Assembly: GCA_045613905.1 (NCBI GenBank)
Contig: JAZLBW010000002.1
Location: 68,502 to 132,501 of the forward strand
Length of the DNA stretch: 64,000 nucleotides
Direction: 5' to 3'
Origin: Candidatus Caccoplasma sp.
Lineage (GTDB): Bacteria; Bacteroidota; Bacteroidia; Bacteroidales; G3-4614
Position numbers and translations under genes: made by a program. The number at the start of each line of letters is the position of its first letter. Position 1 is the first letter of the stretch. The notes below the pieces were generated by a model. That model did no database searches. It was not told the DNA's origin and worked only from the letters and a program-made list of their open reading frames with translations. This document shows positions 4,297 to 16,698 of the stretch, piece after piece.

Positions 4297-5517
4297 CTAT
4301 TTCAATAACAACGAAGAGTCGCCGTAGCTTAAGAAGCGGAAGTTGTTTGCAAGTGCATAATCGTATATCTCACGCCACTTTTCGCCACCTCCAATGTAGG
4401 CTGACACCAACAGCAACAGGGTGCTTTTGGGTTGGTGGAAGTTTGTGATTATTCCGTCCACGACTTTGAATTGATAGTTTGGTACTATTATTATTTGTGT
4501 TGATGTTACCAAATGAGTTAGGTTATTTGCTTTCAAATAATCAGCAATATTTTTAAAAGCCTCTTGTCGCGTTACACCGCTTGGGCAGTCGTATGGTTGC
4601 CACTGCGATACTTTTAGCGAAAGTGGATTTTCCGGTTCACGACCCAATGCCGCTCCTATATGATATAACGACTCCAATGTACGCACCGAGGTTGTTCCCA
4701 CTGCTATTACCGTGCGAGTGGTGTTTGCTATTTTTTCGATTATTTCGAGTGGCACGGATATTAACTCGGTGTGCATATCATGACCTCCGATTGTTTCACT
4801 CTTTACAGGGCGGAATGTTCCTGCTCCTACATGCAGGGTTACTTCGGCTGTTTCGATTCCGCTATCTGCCAATGATGTAAACACCTCGGGGGTAAAGTGA
4901 AGCCCTGCTGTTGGTGCTGCTACCGACCCCTCTATTTTTGAATATACGGTTTGGTATGTGGTTTTGTCGCTCTCCTCAGCCTCGCGATTTAGGTATGGAG
5001 GAATTGGCAACTCACCTACAGCATCTAACAATCGAGCAAATGTTACCGATGAGTTATTCCACGAAAAACGTATCTGCTGTGGCGAGCCTGTGGTGATTCT
5101 CTCTGCCGAGAATTTCACGGTTGTTCCATCAACCTCAACCTCACGAGTAAGTTTTCCCTCTTTCCACTTTTTTGAGTTTCCTACCAAACAATCCCACACA
5201 CAACTTTCGGTTGACTGAAACGATAGTGCATAGTCTGCAGGTGTATGAGGTTCAAGGCAGAATATCTCAATGGATGCTCCACTCTCTTTTTGAAAGTGAA
5301 GGCGCGCCTGTATTACTCTTGTATTATTGAATACAAGTAGTGAATTTTGGGGCAGATGGGAAGGTAAGGTATTGAACTTGTCTTCCGCTAATTCTCCGCC
5401 TTTATATAGTAGTAGTTTTGATGTGTCGCGTTTGGGCAATGGAAATTTTGCTATTCGTTCATCGGGGAGCGGATAGTCGTATGATTCCATTGATATGTTT
5501 TTATACTCTTGACTCAT
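4297..5517 (-). CDS. queA: S-adenosylmethionine:tRNA ribosyltransferase-isomerase
   Basis: 406 aa. QueA-like motifs PIPPYL and TLHVGAGTFRPV. Typical QueA length. Confidence 0.9.
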   Translation of the reverse strand: MSQEYKNISMESYDYPLPDERIAKFPLPKRDTSKLLLYKGGELAEDKFNTLPSHLPQNSLLVFNNTRVIQARLHFQKESGASIEIFCLEPHTPADYALSFQSTESCVWDCLVGNSKKWKEGKLTREVEVDGTTVKFSAERITTGSPQQIRFSWNNSSVTFARLLDAVGELPIPPYLNREAEESDKTTYQTVYSKIEGSVAAPTAGLHFTPEVFTSLADSGIETAEVTLHVGAGTFRPVKSETIGGHDMHTELISVPLEIIEKIANTTRTVIAVGTTSVRTLESLYHIGAALGREPENPLSLKVSQWQPYDCPSGVTRQEAFKNIADYLKANNLTHLVTSTQIIIVPNYQFKVVDGIITNFHQPKSTLLLLVSAYIGGGEKWREIYDYALANNFRFLSYGDSSLLLK

Positions 5518-9189: not shown

Positions 9190-10434
9190 ATGAAACGCTC
9201 TATTTTACTTTCTTTGGTTTTGATGTTCGTATCAATTCAGCTATTGGCTGACGAAACAGAGAATTCTCACATAGTTTATGAGAAAGGTAAAAGAAATTGG
9301 TTTATAGAGGGAGGTGCCAATGCCAACCTTTATTTAGGACAAGAGGATAAACAAATCCACTTCTTGAACCGCATAGGTTGGGGAGGCTCTTTCAACTTTG
9401 GTAAATGGTTCACTCCTTGCGTCGGTTTTAAAATGGAATTGAATGCCGCAGAATATTTTGGCAGTGCCTTTAATAGTTCTGAAGCAAACTTCGTGAAACA
9501 CAACAAAAAATGGGATAGACAATACACTCAAAACAATTTGAACAATTTGCAGTTCCAACAATTCTTTGCATTCAACCCCAACATAGATGTTATGTTCAAT
9601 CTATTCAACTCGTTAGGCAAAGCAAAGGAGAAGAGAGTTTTTGACATGATTCTGTCGGTAGGTGGCGGTGTATTGGTAAATAACGGAGCCAACGTTGAAT
9701 ACAACCTCAATAAAGATAAATCAAGAATCATTCTATCTCCTACATTTAACTTGGGATTGCAAGGCAAATTCAGATTATCAAAACATGTTGATTTGAATAT
9801 TGATTATAGGGTTGGATATGTATCAAATTCTTTCGATGGACAAACAACATGGACTTCTGTTTATCAATTGGGCGATTTAATATCGTCGGCAGGTATATCC
9901 ATTACGTATAAATTCAAACCTCGTGGATACGCCAAATGCAAAGTGGTAGAGGATAAAACTTCTGAGTTGGAATATTATAAAGGGTTATACAACTCCACCA
10001 AACAAGAGAATGATAGTTTAGCAAGAGCAAACCGAACTCTAAAAGAGAGTAATACAGAGTTGGCAAGTAAACTTTCGACACAACCTCAAGTTGAATACAT
10101 CAAAAAAGAGAGCAATTCTAAAATTATTGCAATCTTAGAGTACAAAATCGGAGTTTCGGAATTAAACAAAGAGAACAGATCTAAACTTAAAGTTGCAGCC
10201 GACATTATAAAAGACAATCCCGAATACACATTTGAAGTTTGCGGTTATGCTGATAACGAAACCGGTTCTAAAGATATAAATATTCGCTTGAGAAATGCTC
10301 GTGCCAACAGAGCAATCGACCAACTTTTACACTACGGTGTAAACCGCAATCAACTATTTAAATCGACTAACGACGGAGAGTTACCGGGAACTTCTACAAG
10401 AGCTATTATAATCCGCCAATTGGATTGTGAATAA
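9190..10434 (+). CDS. OmpA family outer membrane protein (beta-barrel + coiled coil + OmpA-like C-terminal domain)
   Basis: Signal peptide and an aromatic-rich barrel-like N-terminal half. Heptad-like linker. C-terminal OmpA_C-like region (CGYADNETGSKDINIRLRNARAN). Confidence 0.8.
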   Translation: MKRSILLSLVLMFVSIQLLADETENSHIVYEKGKRNWFIEGGANANLYLGQEDKQIHFLNRIGWGGSFNFGKWFTPCVGFKMELNAAEYFGSAFNSSEANFVKHNKKWDRQYTQNNLNNLQFQQFFAFNPNIDVMFNLFNSLGKAKEKRVFDMILSVGGGVLVNNGANVEYNLNKDKSRIILSPTFNLGLQGKFRLSKHVDLNIDYRVGYVSNSFDGQTTWTSVYQLGDLISSAGISITYKFKPRGYAKCKVVEDKTSELEYYKGLYNSTKQENDSLARANRTLKESNTELASKLSTQPQVEYIKKESNSKIIAILEYKIGVSELNKENRSKLKVAADIIKDNPEYTFEVCGYADNETGSKDINIRLRNARANRAIDQLLHYGVNRNQLFKSTNDGELPGTSTRAIIIRQLDCE

Positions 10435-10486
10435 TTGTTAGTTAACGCGTTTCGCGAGCCTATAGTTTTAAATGAAACATAAAAAC

Positions 10487-10516
10487 GGGATTAGGATTTT
10501 TTCCTACTCCCTTTTT
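10487..10516 (+). terminator. rho-independent terminator after the OmpA-family gene
   Basis: Stem GGGATTAGGA / TCCTACTCCC (10 bp, 1 mismatch) with a T-rich loop, followed by TTTTT. Confidence 0.55.
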
Positions 10517-10734
10517 CCTTATCTGTTAATCTCTAACTTAGCGTATCTACTCCTCATCTCTATCCCCTCTACAGATTATTAGTTAAGAAATTTTACTCCG
10601 TCGCACAGGGTAGTAAAATCATCAGTCGTGCTGTCACATTAAAACTTTTCTCTCCTCACAAAATCAGTTTGTATAAATTTCGCACTTACTGCCTATGTTT
10701 TGGTATTTTCTTTGGCAATAAAATATGTAAAAAT

Positions 10735-11934
10735 ATGGCAAGTGTAAAAGTAAAGTTCCGTGCTTCTAAAATAGAAGGCAAGGAGGGAAAAATCTATTAT
10801 CAAATCATTCAGAATCGTGTAGTTCGTCAGTTAAAAACCAATTATCGACTCTATGCGAATGAGTGGAACGAGAGTAAAAACAGAATAACCATAACCAATA
10901 ACAGTCGCCAAAACTATCTTAAAACCATTGGGGAGAGAATATATTGGGATATTAAACGATTGCAGGCGATAATCAATTTATTGGAGAGTAAAAATATAAA
11001 ATACTCGACAGATGAAATAATCTCAACTTTTCAGAAGCAAGACAATGAGCAATCGCTATTCAACTTTATGCAGAGTGTCATTTTGCAACTACAGCAGATG
11101 GGTAAGCAACGCACATCAGAAACCTATCAAGCAACGCTTCGGAGTTTTATGAGTTTCCGAGAGGACAGGGATATTCTACTGTATGAGATAGATTCAGATA
11201 CAATGTTGATGTATGAAGCGTATTTGCAGAATAGAGGATTGACAAAGAATACAACTTCGTTCTATATGCGAATCTTGCGTGCTGTATATAATCGTTCAGT
11301 TGAAAAGGATTTAATCGTTAATCGAAATCCATTTAAACACGTTTATACAGGCGTTGATAGGACCGTTAAGCGAGCCATTCCGCTAAAAACAATCAAACTA
11401 ATAAAGAACCTTGACCTCTCGTTGCAGTCCTCGCTTGATTTTGCTCGAGATATGTTTATGTTCTCATTTTACACACGTGGAATGTCTTTTATTGATATGG
11501 CATACCTCAAGAAAAAAGACCTCTCTAATGGCATACTATCATACCGCAGACGCAAAACAGGGCAACAATTATTCATTAAATGGGAGAGGTGTATGCAAGA
11601 GATTATTGAAAAATACGATAATCCTCACTCCTCTTACCTATTGCCCATCATAAAGCCAACAAATGGAGACGAACGCACACAATATCAAAATGCAATGTGC
11701 CTTGTTAACCGCAAACTCAAAATTATAGGGCATATGGTGGATATTCAACAACCCTTAACCATGTACTCAGCACGGCACTCATGGGCAAGTGTAGCAAAGA
11801 ATAAAAATATACCAATATCAGTAATAAGTGAGGGAATGGGACACGACTCAGAAATGACGACACAAATCTACCTGGCTTCGTTAGATAATGCAGTAGTTGA
11901 CAAAGCAAATGCTCAGATATTAAAGGATTTGTAG
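10735..11934 (+). CDS. site-specific tyrosine recombinase (Bacteroidales phage-integrase family with N-terminal Arm DNA-binding domain)
   Basis: Start moved to ATG 10735 (MASVKVKFRASK..., the typical Arm-domain N-terminus). The C-terminal catalytic region has ARHSWA, GHDSEMTTQIYL (H..Y). Confidence 0.85.
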   Translation: MASVKVKFRASKIEGKEGKIYYQIIQNRVVRQLKTNYRLYANEWNESKNRITITNNSRQNYLKTIGERIYWDIKRLQAIINLLESKNIKYSTDEIISTFQKQDNEQSLFNFMQSVILQLQQMGKQRTSETYQATLRSFMSFREDRDILLYEIDSDTMLMYEAYLQNRGLTKNTTSFYMRILRAVYNRSVEKDLIVNRNPFKHVYTGVDRTVKRAIPLKTIKLIKNLDLSLQSSLDFARDMFMFSFYTRGMSFIDMAYLKKKDLSNGILSYRRRKTGQQLFIKWERCMQEIIEKYDNPHSSYLLPIIKPTNGDERTQYQNAMCLVNRKLKIIGHMVDIQQPLTMYSARHSWASVAKNKNIPISVISEGMGHDSEMTTQIYLASLDNAVVDKANAQILKDL

Positions 11935-11964
11935 GATATGGGGGTGTTTAGCAAAACGCTACAA

Positions 11965-11982
11965 CTCTTACCAAGAGATGAA
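11965..11982. repeat. left inverted repeat of the candidate invertible segment
   Basis: CTCTTACCAAGAGATGAA is the exact reverse complement of 12134-12151. Confidence 0.9.
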
Positions 11983-12133
11983 TATCTAAACGCAAAGATA
12001 CGTAATTTATATTAGATAAAGGATTTAATAATTCAAGAAAATTAATATTTTACAAATTTTATATACAATAGTTTAGCATATCAAGGATAAATGTATTGTA
12101 TTGTTGTTGATACATAAGATGTTATAAAAACGG

Positions 12134-12151
12134 TTCATCTCTTGGTAAGAG
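12134..12151. repeat. right inverted repeat of the candidate invertible segment
   Basis: TTCATCTCTTGGTAAGAG is the exact reverse complement of 11965-11982. Confidence 0.9.
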
Positions 12152-12248
12152 ATGTGCATAAATTAAGAATGTAATGTGAAGGATTTTGCCTGCCTCATAA
12201 AACATTAAAGAATTTAGATGATAATATAAAAACAAATCAAATACAATT

Positions 12249-14219
12249 ATGAAAAAATTAAATTTATTGCTTTTATTGATATTCAGTGTCATTTCGCTGA
12301 ATATTTATGCTCACGATTTTGAAATGGTTAATAGCGATGGAAAAACTATTTATTACGATATTATTTCGTCTGCGGACTTAACAGTCTCTGTTAGTTACAG
12401 AGGAAGTAGTTATAGTAGTTATACTAATGAGTATGAAGGAGATATTTCCATTCCATCATCAGTTTCATATAATGGAAAAACATATAGTGTCACTTCAATT
12501 GAAAATAATGCATTCAGGAATTGTGATGGTTTGACTTCTGTAACAATCGGTAACGGTGTCACTTCAATTGGAGATGAAGCATTCTATCATTGTGATGGTT
12601 TGACTTCAATAATCATCCCTAACAGTGTCACTTCAATTGGAGATGATGCATTCTATTATTGTTATGGTTTGACTTCAATAACCATCCCTAATAGTGTCAC
12701 TTCAATTGGAAATTATGCATTCCGTTCGTGTGATGGTTTGACTTCAGTAACAATCCCTAACAGTGTCACTTCAATTGGAAATTATGCATTCGGGGATTGT
12801 GATGGTTTGACAACTATTATAGTAGATGAAGGTAATAGTAAATATGATTCACGCGAAGATTGCAATGCAATAATAGAGAGTGAAACTAATACTCTAATTT
12901 CAGGCTGTAAATCTACTATTATCCCTAACAGTGTCACATCAATAGGCTCTTCTGCATTCTACGGTTGTAGTGGTTTGACTTCAATAACTATCCCTAACAG
13001 TGTCACTTCTATTGGAGATTATGCATTCTTTTCTTGTGATGGTTTGACTTCTGTAACCATCCCCAATAGTGTCACTTCAATTGAAAATAATGCATTCTCT
13101 TGGTGTGATGCTTTGACTTCAGTAACAATCGGTAACGGTGTCACCTCAATTGGAGATGATGCATTCTACGGTTGTAGTGGTTTGACTTCCGCAACAATAG
13201 GCGACAGTGTCACTTCAATTGGAAATTGGGCATTCTCACGTTGTAGTGGATTGACTTCTGTAACAATCGGTAACAGTGTCTCCTCAATTGGAGATTATGC
13301 ATTCTCTTATTGTGATGCTTTGACTTCAATAAATGTAGATTCCGACAATCCATCTTATACATCATTAAATGGAGTGTTATTCAATAAAGGGAAAACACAG
13401 TTGATAATATATCCTAAAGGGAAAGAAGGGTCATACAACATCCCTAACAGTGTCTCTTCAATTGAAAATAATGCATTCTCTTATTGTGATGCTTTGACTT
13501 CAATAACCATCCCAAACAGTGTCACTTCAATTGGAGATAGGGTATTCGATAATTGTAAAGGTTTGACTTCAATAACCATCCCAAACAGTGTCACTTCAAT
13601 TGGAAATTATGCATTCAGGAATTGTGATGGTTTGACTTCAGCAACCATCCCTAATAGTGTCACTTCAATTGGAAATTATGCATTCTCTTCTTGTGATGCT
13701 TTGACTTCAATAACTATTCCTAATAGTGTCACTTCAATAGGAGAAGATGCTTTCTGGGGTTGTAGTGGTTTGACTTCCGCAACAATAGGCGACAGTGTTA
13801 TTTCAATAGGAGATGAGGCATTCAGTAAATGCACCGGCTTAACAGAGATTTACTCGTTAAATCCCGAACCTGCAATATGTAATGGAAATTCTTTCTCACA
13901 AGTTGATAAAACTATTCCTGTATATATTCCATATGGATCAAAAAGTGCTTACAAATCGGCAGCTGAGTGGAAAGATTTTACAAACTTTATTGAGAGCGAG
14001 TTCACAGGAGTTGATGAGGAAGTAATCTCAACTTCAGATATTAAGGTTATATCGGGTAATGGTATTGAGGTTAACGATTACTACGGCCGCATTCGCATTG
14101 TAAACCTTGCAGGGCAAGTTATAAAAGATGCTTATGTAAATGGTTATGTTCAATTATCTTTACCTAAAGGTGTTTATATTGTAGTTACAGAAAACTATTC
14201 TCAAAAAGTAATTTTATAA
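12249..14219 (+). CDS. BspA-type leucine-rich repeat surface protein with T9SS C-terminal sorting domain
   Basis: Signal peptide and about 20 copies of the 23-aa unit IPNSVTSIGxxAFxxCxGLTSVT. The C-terminal ~70 aa (…RIRIVNLAGQVIKD…GVYIVVTENYSQKVIL) are typical of Por/T9SS CTDs. Confidence 0.85.
   Translation: MKKLNLLLLLIFSVISLNIYAHDFEMVNSDGKTIYYDIISSADLTVSVSYRGSSYSSYTNEYEGDISIPSSVSYNGKTYSVTSIENNAFRNCDGLTSVTIGNGVTSIGDEAFYHCDGLTSIIIPNSVTSIGDDAFYYCYGLTSITIPNSVTSIGNYAFRSCDGLTSVTIPNSVTSIGNYAFGDCDGLTTIIVDEGNSKYDSREDCNAIIESETNTLISGCKSTIIPNSVTSIGSSAFYGCSGLTSITIPNSVTSIGDYAFFSCDGLTSVTIPNSVTSIENNAFSWCDALTSVTIGNGVTSIGDDAFYGCSGLTSATIGDSVTSIGNWAFSRCSGLTSVTIGNSVSSIGDYAFSYCDALTSINVDSDNPSYTSLNGVLFNKGKTQLIIYPKGKEGSYNIPNSVSSIENNAFSYCDALTSITIPNSVTSIGDRVFDNCKGLTSITIPNSVTSIGNYAFRNCDGLTSATIPNSVTSIGNYAFSSCDALTSITIPNSVTSIGEDAFWGCSGLTSATIGDSVISIGDEAFSKCTGLTEIYSLNPEPAICNGNSFSQVDKTIPVYIPYGSKSAYKSAAEWKDFTNFIESEFTGVDEEVISTSDIKVISGNGIEVNDYYGRIRIVNLAGQVIKDAYVNGYVQLSLPKGVYIVVTENYSQKVIL
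12444..13845 (+). repeat. tandem 69-bp (23-codon) LRR coding repeats, many near-identical at the DNA level
   Basis: Strings such as CAGTGTCACTTCAATTGGAAATTATGCATTC recur throughout. Three repeat blocks are separated by short non-repeat linkers. Confidence 0.85.
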
Positions 14220-14248
14220 TTTCTCGGATTATATAAATCTTCGAAAAC

Positions 14249-14285
14249 GAGAGGGTGACCCGTTTTTCTTTTGGATCACCCTCTC
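14249..14285. terminator. hairpin between the convergent LRR and PBP1A genes
   Basis: 10-bp perfect stem GAGAGGGTGA / TCACCCTCTC with a 17-nt loop. The flanking T-runs are weak. Confidence 0.45.
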
Positions 14286-14319
14286 TTGTGTAAGGGTTGA
14301 ATAAAAAGAGCTATTTGTC

Positions 14320-16698
14320 TTAATCAAACATTCCCTCCATTACATCTTCTTCAACCTTAGTTTCTTCGCGGATTGTGGTCTCCTTTGAAACCGCTTCAAA
14401 ATCGCCTTCGCCACATAAATCCTCGTATTCTTCGGGTACTTCAAAATCTAAATCTTGAGAGTAGCCCAATGTTGGGTCGGCATAAACTTTCTGCATAAAC
14501 AATCCATATATGGGAAGTGCCATTGATGCTCCTTGACCTACAGACATACGGTCGAAGTGGATTGAACGATCCTCTCCTCCTACCCACACTCCTGCTGCAA
14601 GTTCGGGTGTGAACGCCATAAACCAACCATCTGAGTTATTATTGGTTGTTCCTGTTTTTCCACCCATTGGTGCTGTAATTCCATATTTGTATCTCATACG
14701 AACACCTGTTCCCTCGTTTACTACATCTTTAAGGATTGAAAGCATCTTGTAGTAGGCTTGTTGACTTACCACTTCAGTCATATTGGGAGTGAATGTTGAT
14801 ATTACGTTTCCGAAGTTGTCCTCAATTCGCGTTACATATATGGGATCTACGCGTATTCCTCCATTTGAAAAGGCTGTATATGCTGTTACCATCTCCTCCA
14901 CAGAGACCTCGGCAGGTCCTAAACATAGTGCCATCACGGGGTCAATGTGATTGCGTATTCCAAACGAGTGCATTAGCGTTGCCAACGACTGTGGAGAGAG
15001 TTGATTCATCAACCAAGCAGATATCCAATTATTAGAAGTTGTCAATCCCCAGCGAAGTGTCACGTTTTCTCCCACTCTCTTATCTGAGGCATTACGAGGC
15101 GCCCAGACATCTCCTGTATATTGATCTACTATATATGGCTGTACGTTTGGTGCCAAATCGCATGGTGTAAAGCCCTCCTCCATGGCTAAAGTGTATAGGA
15201 ATGGTTTTACGGTTGACCCAACCTGACGACGTCCTACAGATGCCATATCGTATTGAAAGTGACGGAAATCCACTCCTCCAACATATGCTTTTACATGTCC
15301 GTTTTTGGAGTTAACCGCCATAAATCCTGTATGCAAGAACGATTTGTAGTAACGAATAGAGTCCATGGGGGTCATTGTGGTATCCACAACTCCGCGCAAT
15401 GTATATACCTGCATATCGCAAGGCGTATTAAATGCGTCATCTATCTCAGCTTCGCTTTTTCCTGCTTTCTTCATTATACGGTATCTGTCGCTCTGCTTTT
15501 TGCTTCTGTCAAGCATAGATTTAACCTCCTCGGGTGTTACATCTTCAGAGAATGGAGCATTGGCTTTGCGACGCAACTCTTTGAAAAATTCGGGTTGCAA
15601 ATATCCGTTTATATGCTCTTGTACCGCAGCTTCGGCATACTCTTGCATGCGAGAATCGATGGTTGTGTATATCTTCAATCCATCAGTATAGATATTGTAT
15701 TTTGAGCCATCGGCTTTTTTGTTTTTGTTACACCAACCATACAATGGATTTGTCTCCCATGCTATTGAGTCATCAACATATTGTTGACGTTGCCAACCTC
15801 TGTAATCGGAACGTTTTGGCTCTTTTGCCGTAAGCATAAGACGCAATTTCTCTCTGAAATATGGAGCAATTCCCTCTTTATGGTCAGCTTTACTGAATTT
15901 TAATGTAATTGGCAATTGAACGAGAGAATCTCGCTCTGCTTCTGTAATGTATCCTGCCTTCTCCATCTGCGAAAGAACGACATTACGGCGAGCCTGTGTC
16001 TGCTCTTTACGACGAACAGGATTGTATAGTGATGGGTTTTTCAACATACCCACAAGCATTGCAGCCTCCTCGGTTTTTAGTTTATCGGGGGTGGTACTGA
16101 AATATACCGATGCCGCCGATTGTATTCCAACCGCATTGTAAAGAAAATCGAATTTATTGAGATACATCTTTATTATCTCTTTCTTTGTATAGAATCGTTC
16201 CAATTTTAGAGCTATAACCCACTCTATTGGTTTTTGAAAAAGACGTTCCATCTTGCTATCGGTACTTGGAGAGAACAACTGTTTTGCCAATTGCTGTGTA
16301 ATGGTACTTCCTCCTCCTGCTGTTCCAACTCCCGATATTCCCTTTACAACAGCTCTTACCAACGCTCGTATATCTATTCCCGAGTGTTCGTAAAAGCGTT
16401 CGTCTTCAGTTGCGATGAGAGCTTCAATGAGAACGGGCGATATATCTTGATAATCGACATAGACACGGTTTGCCTGACTTTGGTGATAGTTTCCTATTAC
16501 CTTCAAATCAGACGAATATATTTCAGAGGCAAATTTGTCTTTAGGATTCTCCAGCTCCTCGATGGGTGGCATATATCCTATTTTGCCGTTTGCAATAAGA
16601 ACAAACAAAATTACTACCGAAATTATGCCTGTTGCAAAAAGCACCCATAACGATTTTATTATTTTACTCTCTATCTTTTTATTTTTTATTATTCCCAT
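14320..16698 (-). CDS. mrcA: penicillin-binding protein 1A (bifunctional transglycosylase/transpeptidase)
   Basis: 792 aa with an N-terminal TM helix. GT51 motifs EDERFYEHSGID and GGSTITQQL. Transpeptidase motifs STVKP and KTGTT. Confidence 0.9.
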   Translation of the reverse strand: MGIIKNKKIESKIIKSLWVLFATGIISVVILFVLIANGKIGYMPPIEELENPKDKFASEIYSSDLKVIGNYHQSQANRVYVDYQDISPVLIEALIATEDERFYEHSGIDIRALVRAVVKGISGVGTAGGGSTITQQLAKQLFSPSTDSKMERLFQKPIEWVIALKLERFYTKKEIIKMYLNKFDFLYNAVGIQSAASVYFSTTPDKLKTEEAAMLVGMLKNPSLYNPVRRKEQTQARRNVVLSQMEKAGYITEAERDSLVQLPITLKFSKADHKEGIAPYFREKLRLMLTAKEPKRSDYRGWQRQQYVDDSIAWETNPLYGWCNKNKKADGSKYNIYTDGLKIYTTIDSRMQEYAEAAVQEHINGYLQPEFFKELRRKANAPFSEDVTPEEVKSMLDRSKKQSDRYRIMKKAGKSEAEIDDAFNTPCDMQVYTLRGVVDTTMTPMDSIRYYKSFLHTGFMAVNSKNGHVKAYVGGVDFRHFQYDMASVGRRQVGSTVKPFLYTLAMEEGFTPCDLAPNVQPYIVDQYTGDVWAPRNASDKRVGENVTLRWGLTTSNNWISAWLMNQLSPQSLATLMHSFGIRNHIDPVMALCLGPAEVSVEEMVTAYTAFSNGGIRVDPIYVTRIEDNFGNVISTFTPNMTEVVSQQAYYKMLSILKDVVNEGTGVRMRYKYGITAPMGGKTGTTNNNSDGWFMAFTPELAAGVWVGGEDRSIHFDRMSVGQGASMALPIYGLFMQKVYADPTLGYSQDLDFEVPEEYEDLCGEGDFEAVSKETTIREETKVEEDVMEGMFD

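Follow-up and report, generated by a model that had tools for sequence, protein, structure and literature searches.

We analyzed a 64-kb stretch of DNA, here called the window, from an uncultured member of the Bacteroidales. A gene for a tyrosine site-specific recombinase of 399 amino acids, a putative invertase (10735 to 11934, plus strand), is followed in the window by a gene on the same strand for a BspA-type leucine-rich-repeat (LRR) protein of 656 amino acids (12249 to 14219). Both open reading frames, with the LRR start codon at 12249, are as the initial annotation of this DNA had given them, and the gap between the genes, put there at 315 bp, is 314 nt. Within this gap, CTCTTACCAAGAGATGAA lies at 11965 to 11982 and its exact reverse complement lies at 12134 to 12151, with 151 nt between them. 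The initial annotation had described this perfect 18-bp inverted repeat (IR), and both a reading of the sequence and a repeat finder confirmed it. An exact-sequence look-up of the recombinase and the LRR protein returned no identical protein on record.

Three Pfam domains were found in the recombinase, all above their cut-offs: PF00589 (Phage_integrase) at 31.1 bits (cut-off, 27.1), PF13102 (Phage_int_SAM_5) at 68.2 bits, and PF17293 (Arm-DNA-bind_5) at 27.7 bits. The initial annotation had named both Tsr-type tyrosine recombinases and Mpi as enzymes that flip invertible promoters in the Bacteroidales. The tyrosine type is borne out by PF00589, and Mpi, which is of the serine type, drops out. 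When we aligned the recombinase to archaeal XerA (4a8e), RH...GH...TTQIY was present, and TTQIY holds the catalytic tyrosine. S251 and Y344 occupy the Arg-I and His-II positions of XerA. Ser and Tyr at these two positions are invariant in the family of related recombinases described below, and this holds also for the branches in which inverted segments occur. Three residues ahead of S251 there is an Arg that is likewise invariant. Ser at the Arg-I position is also typical of IntDOT-type integrases of the Bacteroidetes. Invariance of motifs was assessed over relatives at 52 to 90% identity, and a branch at 43% identity was added to the family through the locus L094. The window recombinase retains every column that is invariant in 14 relatives within that range, and the family-invariant motifs FYTRGMSF.D, ARH.WAS, and GHDSE.TT.IY are all present in it.

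DNA homology to the related modules L007, L044, and L081 to L083 always begins at 10660 to 10672, about 70 bp 5' of the recombinase ATG, whatever lies upstream. With L044, the homology extends as far as the inner edge of the left IR arm and stops precisely there. Thus, the recombinase and the left arm behave as a conserved unit, and the parts exchanged between modules are the invertible segment and the cargo. The conserved leader of this module at 10660 to 10734 (plus strand), which is defined by the homology boundary, is a putative promoter region for the recombinase; no exact TAnnTTTG was found in it. The genes 5' of the module differ, being OmpA-like in the window, a fumarase gene in L081, L123, and L124, and a gene for a large protein in L082 and L083. 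The OmpA-domain gene of the window (9190 to 10434) encodes a signal-peptide protein of 414 amino acids whose middle part resembles a coiled coil and whose C terminus carries an OmpA domain (28.8 bits); the gene adjoins the module upstream but sits outside its conserved part. OmpA-like proteins accompany phase-variable loci in Bacteroides thetaiotaomicron (bioRxiv 10.1101/521070).

The cargo protein begins with a signal-like sequence and contains the repeated LRR_5 units of BspA-type proteins (473 bits over five stretches in Pfam). The initial annotation had described a BspA-type LRR protein exported by a T9SS. The LRR assignment holds, and T9SS export is borderline. The C-terminal domain at 14010 to 14216 (plus strand) resembles a T9SS sorting signal. 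In a scan of the C terminus alone, DUF6383 reached 23.8 bits (cut-off, 23.7), compared with 21.6 bits in the whole protein. The scores of the C terminus for TIGR04183 (Por_Secre_tail) and PF18962 were 21.1 against 23 and 14.3 against 27, respectively. The LRR protein would presumably be located at the surface. Close relatives of the window switch likewise precede LRR_5 genes. The gene that comes after the LRR gene (14320 to 16698) is convergent, and therefore the switch would control the LRR gene alone.

Repeat arms and promoter box

Beyond its perfect 18 bp, the IR extends to 22 nt at 95% complementarity (repeat finder, 11961 to 11982 and 12134 to 12155). The single mismatch, ACAAC versus ACATC, lies in the outer half of the left arm. 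The IR is far above chance expectation: when up to three mismatches were allowed, the 18-mer had three matches against 0.04 expected, and none of 100 shuffles reached three. There is no mismatch-free copy of the 18-mer elsewhere in the 64-kb window.

Each arm is itself a near-palindrome. The left arm (11961 to 11982), which begins 27 nt past the recombinase stop codon, reads CAACTCTT-ACC-AAGAGATG, and the right arm (12134 to 12155) reads CATCTCTT-GGT-AAGAGATG. Their cores are CTCTT-ACC-AAGAG, with the center ACC at 11970 to 11972, and CTCTT-GGT-AAGAG, with the center GGT at 12144 to 12146. The 3-nt center and two inner flanking bases agree between the arms in inverted orientation only and not as a direct repeat. 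A 76% direct repeat between the arms was also detected by the repeat finder; this repeat, like the hairpins predicted on either strand, arises because each arm is nearly palindromic. In the core sites of tyrosine recombinases, inverted binding half-sites flank a short asymmetric crossover region, and sites that face in opposite directions lead to inversion and not to excision. The layout of the arms, with two inverted half-sites around a short asymmetric center, is what would be expected of such a core site.

Between the arms lies an AT-rich segment of 151 bp (11983 to 12133), putatively invertible, that carries a promoter box; its equivalents are inverted between near-identical relatives. A motif scan confirmed that the sole exact TAnnTTTG in the gap between the recombinase and LRR genes is TATCTTTG on the minus strand (11993 to 12000), with none on the plus strand, as had been claimed. 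This candidate -7 box is followed by C, lies 10 nt inside the left arm, and faces away from the LRR gene, which is the OFF orientation. After inversion of 11983 to 12133 in silico, the box occupies positions 12116 to 12123 of the plus strand, and its distance to the ATG at 12249 is 126 nt, in agreement with the earlier estimate of about 125 nt. The ON junctions predicted after the flip are ...CTACAACTCTTACCAAGAGATGAACCGTTTTTAT... and ...TTTGCGTTTAGATATTCATCTCTTGGTAAGAGATGTG..., and the junction strings diagnostic of inversion at this locus are CTACAACTCTTACCAAGAGATGAACCGTTTTTATAAC and CTTTGCGTTTAGATATTCATCTCTTGGTAAGAGATGTGCAT.

The -33 element is poor, with TTTA 16 nt upstream of the box and not TTTG at the usual spacing. 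TAnnTTTG is not enriched in the 64-kb window, where 85 copies were found against 74.5 expected. Thus, the weight of the box rests on its position, which is conserved in relatives. A scan for sigma-70-type promoters gave no excess over shuffles; the sigma-70 model is uninformative for Bacteroidetes.

A fixed leader (12156 to 12248, plus strand) runs from the switch to the LRR start codon. It is nearly identical in L081 to L083 and has no Rfam match, and it is without a promoter box: no plus-strand TAnnTTTG was found in 12152 to 12248, even when one mismatch was allowed. An Rfam scan of 10400 to 14400 gave nothing meaningful, its single match being noise (E = 0.95). A terminator scan found no convincing plus-strand terminator between the recombinase and LRR genes. 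Given this result and the same-strand recombinase gene, some read-through into the LRR gene in the OFF state is possible.

On the minus strand, the terminator scan scored 12126 to 12154, where the 8-bp hairpin of the right arm is followed by AACCGTTTTT, as terminator-like. In the in-silico flip, the T-run of AACCGTTTTT moves to the plus strand, directly behind the recombinase stop codon. We rejected the right-arm hairpin and T-run as a conserved functional part of the family, as most relatives are without the T-run. Repeated AAACG(C/G) words near the arms were also considered as arm-type binding sites and rejected; they are not kept in L044 or in remoter relatives.

A family of related elements

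A scan of one genome per species gave 198 stretches that encode relatives of the recombinase, and 80 loci were taken for comparison. These genome loci, at 49 to 94% protein identity, come from Prevotella, Alistipes, Muribaculaceae, Parabacteroides, Odoribacter, Phocaeicola, Bacteroides, Rikenellaceae, and others. The closest matches of the window are metagenome-assembled genomes (MAGs) and metagenome contigs, including a MAG from water-buffalo caecum. Overall, homologous recombinases with the same layout occur across the Bacteroidales at 43 to 95% identity.

At least 47 of the 80 loci share the order recombinase, IR, promoter, IR, gene. A comparison of the IR in related genomes had been proposed in the initial annotation, and we found an IR of the TCTCTT-N3-AAGAGA type in 47 of the 80 homologous loci. 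In these 47, the IR is perfect over 12 to 38 nt and usually starts about 25 to 45 nt past the stop codon. The distance between the arms of relatives is 134 to 193 bp, mostly 144 to 171 bp. The TCTCTT-N3-AAGAGA core that their arms share is often followed by CGGA; in the window, the left arm reads (A)CTCTT-ACC-AAGAGA and the right arm TCTCTT-GGT-AAGAGA. There is hardly any variation in the half-sites, and the center differs between elements: it is ACC in the window, ATC in L044, and TCC versus TTT in L015 and L019, which are paralogues from one MAG with different arm centers. The window thus has the features of the family as a whole (L001 to L127): a recombinase at least about 43% identical, a palindromic core, and a variable center of odd length.

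This pattern bears on whether the arms might simply be hairpins, that is, stems of a terminator or attenuator in RNA or DNA around an AT-rich spacer, with nothing inverting and the IR a by-product of two palindromes. Each arm is self-complementary and folds as RNA, the left at -3.6 kcal/mol and the right at -8.3 kcal/mol on the minus strand and at -10.4 kcal/mol on the plus strand, where it forms an 8-bp hairpin. The terminator-like score of the right arm with AACCGTTTTT on the minus strand and the 76% direct repeat would also fit such stems. However, the TCTCTT/AAGAGA stems are fixed across the family and the 3-nt center is variable, which is the pattern of a protein-binding site and not of compensatory change. 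In addition, the center and the inner 2 nt of the arms agree as an inverted repeat and not as a direct one. Because the stems are kept as sequence, the loop varies, the T-run of the right arm is not conserved, and relatives occur in both orientations, we reject hairpins alone as the explanation and regard it as extremely improbable.

The position of the promoter box points instead to an invertible promoter. Of the 48 family elements (the 47 relatives and the window), 42 have a TAnnTTTG, in most cases with C or T as the next base, at 1 to 25 nt from one of the arms; the usual distance is 10 to 14 nt, and most fall between 7 and 18 nt. The box adjoins the recombinase-proximal arm and faces back in 32 of these 42, the window included, and it adjoins the distal arm and faces the downstream gene in 10. 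The two placements are exactly both of the states predicted for an inverton.

Direct comparison of related loci revealed the segment in both orientations. The inner 164 bp of L035 and L036 are 100% identical only as the reverse complement, with flanks that are 100% and 99% identical. L036 is a Parabacteroides distasonis contig; its recombinase is 60% identical to that of the window, and its core is TCTCTT-GCC-AAGAGA. Three further pairs have collinear flanks. The segment is 85% identical as the reverse complement between L065 and L068 and 77% identical as the reverse complement between L016 and L021. Between L094 (ON) and L085 (OFF), the inner segment is 76% identical as the reverse complement versus 61% in the forward direction. 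The latter two loci share the window's own CATCTCTTACCAAGAGATG core, although the L094 recombinase is only 43% identical to that of the window. In the 43% branch (L094:6282-7800, L095, L112, L113, L120, and L085:3626-4100), the CATCTCTTACCAAGAGATG core occurs with 200 bp between the arms, and the boxes read TACCTTTG in L094 (ON) and TATTTTTG in L085 (OFF).

The interpretation of the window element as an invertible promoter is supported mainly by these relatives. The initial annotation had proposed an IR-flanked invertible promoter that is served by the neighboring tyrosine recombinase and faces away from the LRR gene. The layout shared by at least 47 of the 80 loci and the inverted pairs both argue for this proposal.

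We also considered whether the recombinase could be the integrase of a mobile cassette, with the repeats as its ends or attachment sites and the box incidental. The arm-binding, SAM-like, and catalytic domains of the recombinase are typical of integrases, and related invertases have been reported on ICEs (PMC8748976). The module, from about 70 bp 5' of the ATG to the switch, is found behind differing upstream genes and has clearly spread between contexts. However, the repeats enclose 151 bp without a gene, the recombinase lies outside them, and the inverted orientation of the sites yields inversion and not excision. The conserved box position (42 of 48 elements) does not suit an incidental box, and where near-identical loci were seen to differ, it is by inversion of the small segment. 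A mobile cassette is therefore a highly unlikely explanation, and we retain the invertible promoter.

Of the 80 loci, 20 have a contig end in the 600 bp that follow the recombinase stop codon, and 5 have one within 600 bp upstream. Six of the 20 downstream ends lie at 34 to 61 bp, which is the left arm. Contig breaks at the switch fit mixed orientations in the sampled populations; the module being multi-copy could contribute too.

Orientation at the window locus and a proposed model of the switch

Seven metagenome contigs with recombinases 91 to 95% identical to that of the window have the same arms and an inner segment 94 to 99% identical. The downstream gene in these contigs is an LRR_5 gene wherever its length is sufficient to tell. 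All seven are OFF, which with the window makes eight of eight copies, and no ON copy of the window locus was found. An eighth close contig (L126, 1768 to 1818) ends exactly at the left arm. In the metagenome_contigs collection, the ON right-junction pattern had 0 matches; the IR 18-mer had 39, none of them the window locus and most of them chance singles or family members. In L082, L083, L124, and L125, GAGAC/GTCTC replaces the GAGAT/ATCTC of the window, and the change is matched in both arms. This paired change keeps both arms matched, and thus selection on the repeat is implied.

The predominance of OFF copies led us to weigh a decayed or frozen switch, which would still be built like an inverton but would have lost the ability to flip, leaving the LRR gene permanently silent or driven by read-through. 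The eight OFF copies, the 0 ON-junction matches, the mismatch in the outer half of the left arm (ACAAC versus ACATC), and the weak -33 element would all be consistent with decay. However, the 18-bp arms are perfect, the recombinase frame is intact with all invariant residues, and the LRR frame is intact over its 656 amino acids. Furthermore, OFF predominates in working switches too, in 32 of 42 elements of this family and in about 92% or more of the B. fragilis BT1927 orthologue (PMC4611039), and the matched arm change in L082 and L083 implies selection on the repeat. We therefore think a frozen switch improbable. The initial annotation had called the element locked OFF. With both arms intact and every family-invariant residue of the recombinase retained, OFF is simply the orientation that was assembled, and the word "locked" is unsupported.

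Taken together, the element is very probably a functional or recently functional promoter inverton. Inversion at the window locus itself we infer from its relatives and its intact parts, and the neighboring recombinase is presumably the enzyme that flips the segment. We propose that the recombinase (10735 to 11934) would bind the CTCTT and AAGAG half-sites of both arms and that strand exchange would take place within the 3-nt centers ACC and GGT, the presumed position of exchange. Because these centers are inversely oriented, exchange would invert the 151-bp segment instead of excising it. In the OFF state, the box at the left arm on the minus strand would fire toward the 3' end of the recombinase gene, leaving the LRR gene without a promoter of its own. 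In the ON state, the box would lie at 12116 to 12123 on the plus strand, with transcription probably starting near the right arm, at about 12130. The ON transcript would read through the right-arm hairpin and then a conserved leader of about 120 nt into the single LRR gene. A cell population would then be a mixture of LRR-positive and LRR-negative cells.

If the switch works in this way, an uncultured gut member of the Bacteroidales toggles a BspA-type LRR protein, surface located or secreted, in subpopulations. In other bacteria, BspA-type LRR proteins have been associated with adhesion and with host interaction. An adhesin-like and possibly T9SS-exported cargo would then join the list of phase-variable functions in the Bacteroidales.

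A further joint reading, possible but rather doubtful, is that the switch acts in two directions, through antisense feedback, and that the center of the arms serves as an address. All OFF elements of the family have their promoter aimed at the 3' end of the co-oriented recombinase gene, 25 to 45 nt away, and antisense RNA made in the OFF state could damp further switching. In the window clade, a flip would set the hairpin and T-run on the plus strand behind the recombinase stop codon, and the rate of switching could then be subject to feedback that depends on orientation, much as fimE is under orientational control. The variable 3-nt center could keep the many paralogous switches of one genome from recombining with each other. 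Such paralogous switches would gate adhesin-like proteins and defense genes alike.

Known invertons and the range of cargo

Mpi-type systems combine a serine recombinase with an IR of the ARACGTWCGT type. We ruled out such a serine invertase system here, as the enzyme encoded next to the switch is of the tyrosine type and the sequence of the IR bears no relation to that motif. In Escherichia coli, the fimS element is 314 bp long, with 9-bp IRs and a sigma-70 promoter, and is inverted by two recombinases, FimB and FimE, together with host factors. The window element resembles fimS in that inversion of a promoter by a tyrosine recombinase would give ON/OFF control of an adhesive surface structure. 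However, the recombinase lineage is unrelated, and the 9-bp IRs, the 314-bp element, and the sigma-70 promoter set fimS apart.

The sequence features of Tsr-type invertons of the Bacteroidales were found at the window locus: a tyrosine recombinase gene 27 nt from the left arm, an IR around a short noncoding segment, and a TAnnTTTG box, with a poor -33 element, that would face the downstream gene in just one of the two orientations. From these features, we place the window element among the known tyrosine-recombinase-linked invertons of the Bacteroidales. Fletcher and colleagues reportedly described recombinase-linked invertible promoters in P. distasonis, in PNAS in 2007. The P. distasonis contig L036 has the same TCTCTT-N3-AAGAGA core and is inverted relative to L035, but the cargo of this pair is a 542-amino-acid protein without a Pfam match.

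Experiments have demonstrated that elements with the layout of the window locus flip in B. thetaiotaomicron (bioRxiv 10.1101/521070; PMC4611039) and Phocaeicola vulgatus (PMC12940148). In B. thetaiotaomicron, a recombinase lies upstream at eight S-layer/OmpA-like loci, at the BT4014-13 restriction system, and at the BT0294 lipoprotein locus (Porter et al., bioRxiv 10.1101/521070). At these loci, partly palindromic IRs of 17 to 18 bp flank a near-consensus promoter that stands "off" in the assembled reference genome, and PCR confirmed flipping (bioRxiv 10.1101/521070). Compared by layout, the window element shares with them the recombinase directly upstream, the IR length, and the promoter assembled "off," and their surface-protein and restriction cargo is of kinds also seen among relatives of the window module. 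It differs in its BspA-type LRR cargo and its uncultured host.

The BT1927 S-layer switch and B. fragilis Tsr26 use a 22-bp IR, GTTAC-N7-GTAAC, in a 256-bp element (Taketani et al. 2015, PMC4611039). Here, too, an invertible promoter lies beside tyrosine recombinases, the palindromic IR has an asymmetric spacer, and OFF is dominant in populations. The window IR, in contrast, is CTCTT-N3-AAGAG around 151 bp, with other cargo and another branch of recombinase. Tsr recombinases of P. vulgatus and B. fragilis control EPS and Mfa1 fimbriae (PMC12940148, PMC4747536). As in the window, the tyrosine recombinase gene lies just 5' of the invertible promoter, which there serves surface structures, but the IR motif of these enzymes, TACTTNNNANGTAANNGAA (PMC12940148), is unlike the window IR. 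Invertase-linked promoters also drive resistance genes on ICEs (PMC8748976).

In the literature that we searched, we found no BspA or LRR cargo linked to invertons of the Bacteroidales. The BspA-type LRR cargo may therefore be the novel part of this locus; the current understanding of how such switches work is unchanged by these results. The comparison does define a widespread family of recombinase plus site, with a TCTCTT-N3-AAGAGA arm about 25 to 45 nt past the stop codon and about 150 bp between the arms. This signature could be used to annotate invertons in MAGs directly, without reads.

The genes downstream of the switch in relatives include LRR_5 (L022), SusC-like receptors, DUF3575 proteins, SrfB, and a UpxY/NusG capsule regulator. 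Defense-type genes lie behind the switch in L002 to L005, L008, L014, L017, L018, and L021 and start 14 to 165 nt past the right arm. They encode MmeI/Eco57I-type and N6_N4 methylases, SNF2 and PLD-SNF2 helicases, and a PAPS-reductase-like protein. This gene content suggests that phase-variable restriction or defense systems may be common in ruminant and gut Bacteroidales. That the same module fronts restriction-modification and helicase-nuclease genes agrees with the phase-variable restriction system known from B. thetaiotaomicron.

Finally, two further loci, L101 (about 4520 to 4570) and L109 (about 1960 to 2010), carry two tandem copies of CTCTTACCAAGAGA, 9 nt apart, beside a promoter-like CAAAAATA box. 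By analogy, the tandem copies may be a double site, as in class IP-ARG-2, for which two adjacent invertible regions have been reported (PMC8748976).
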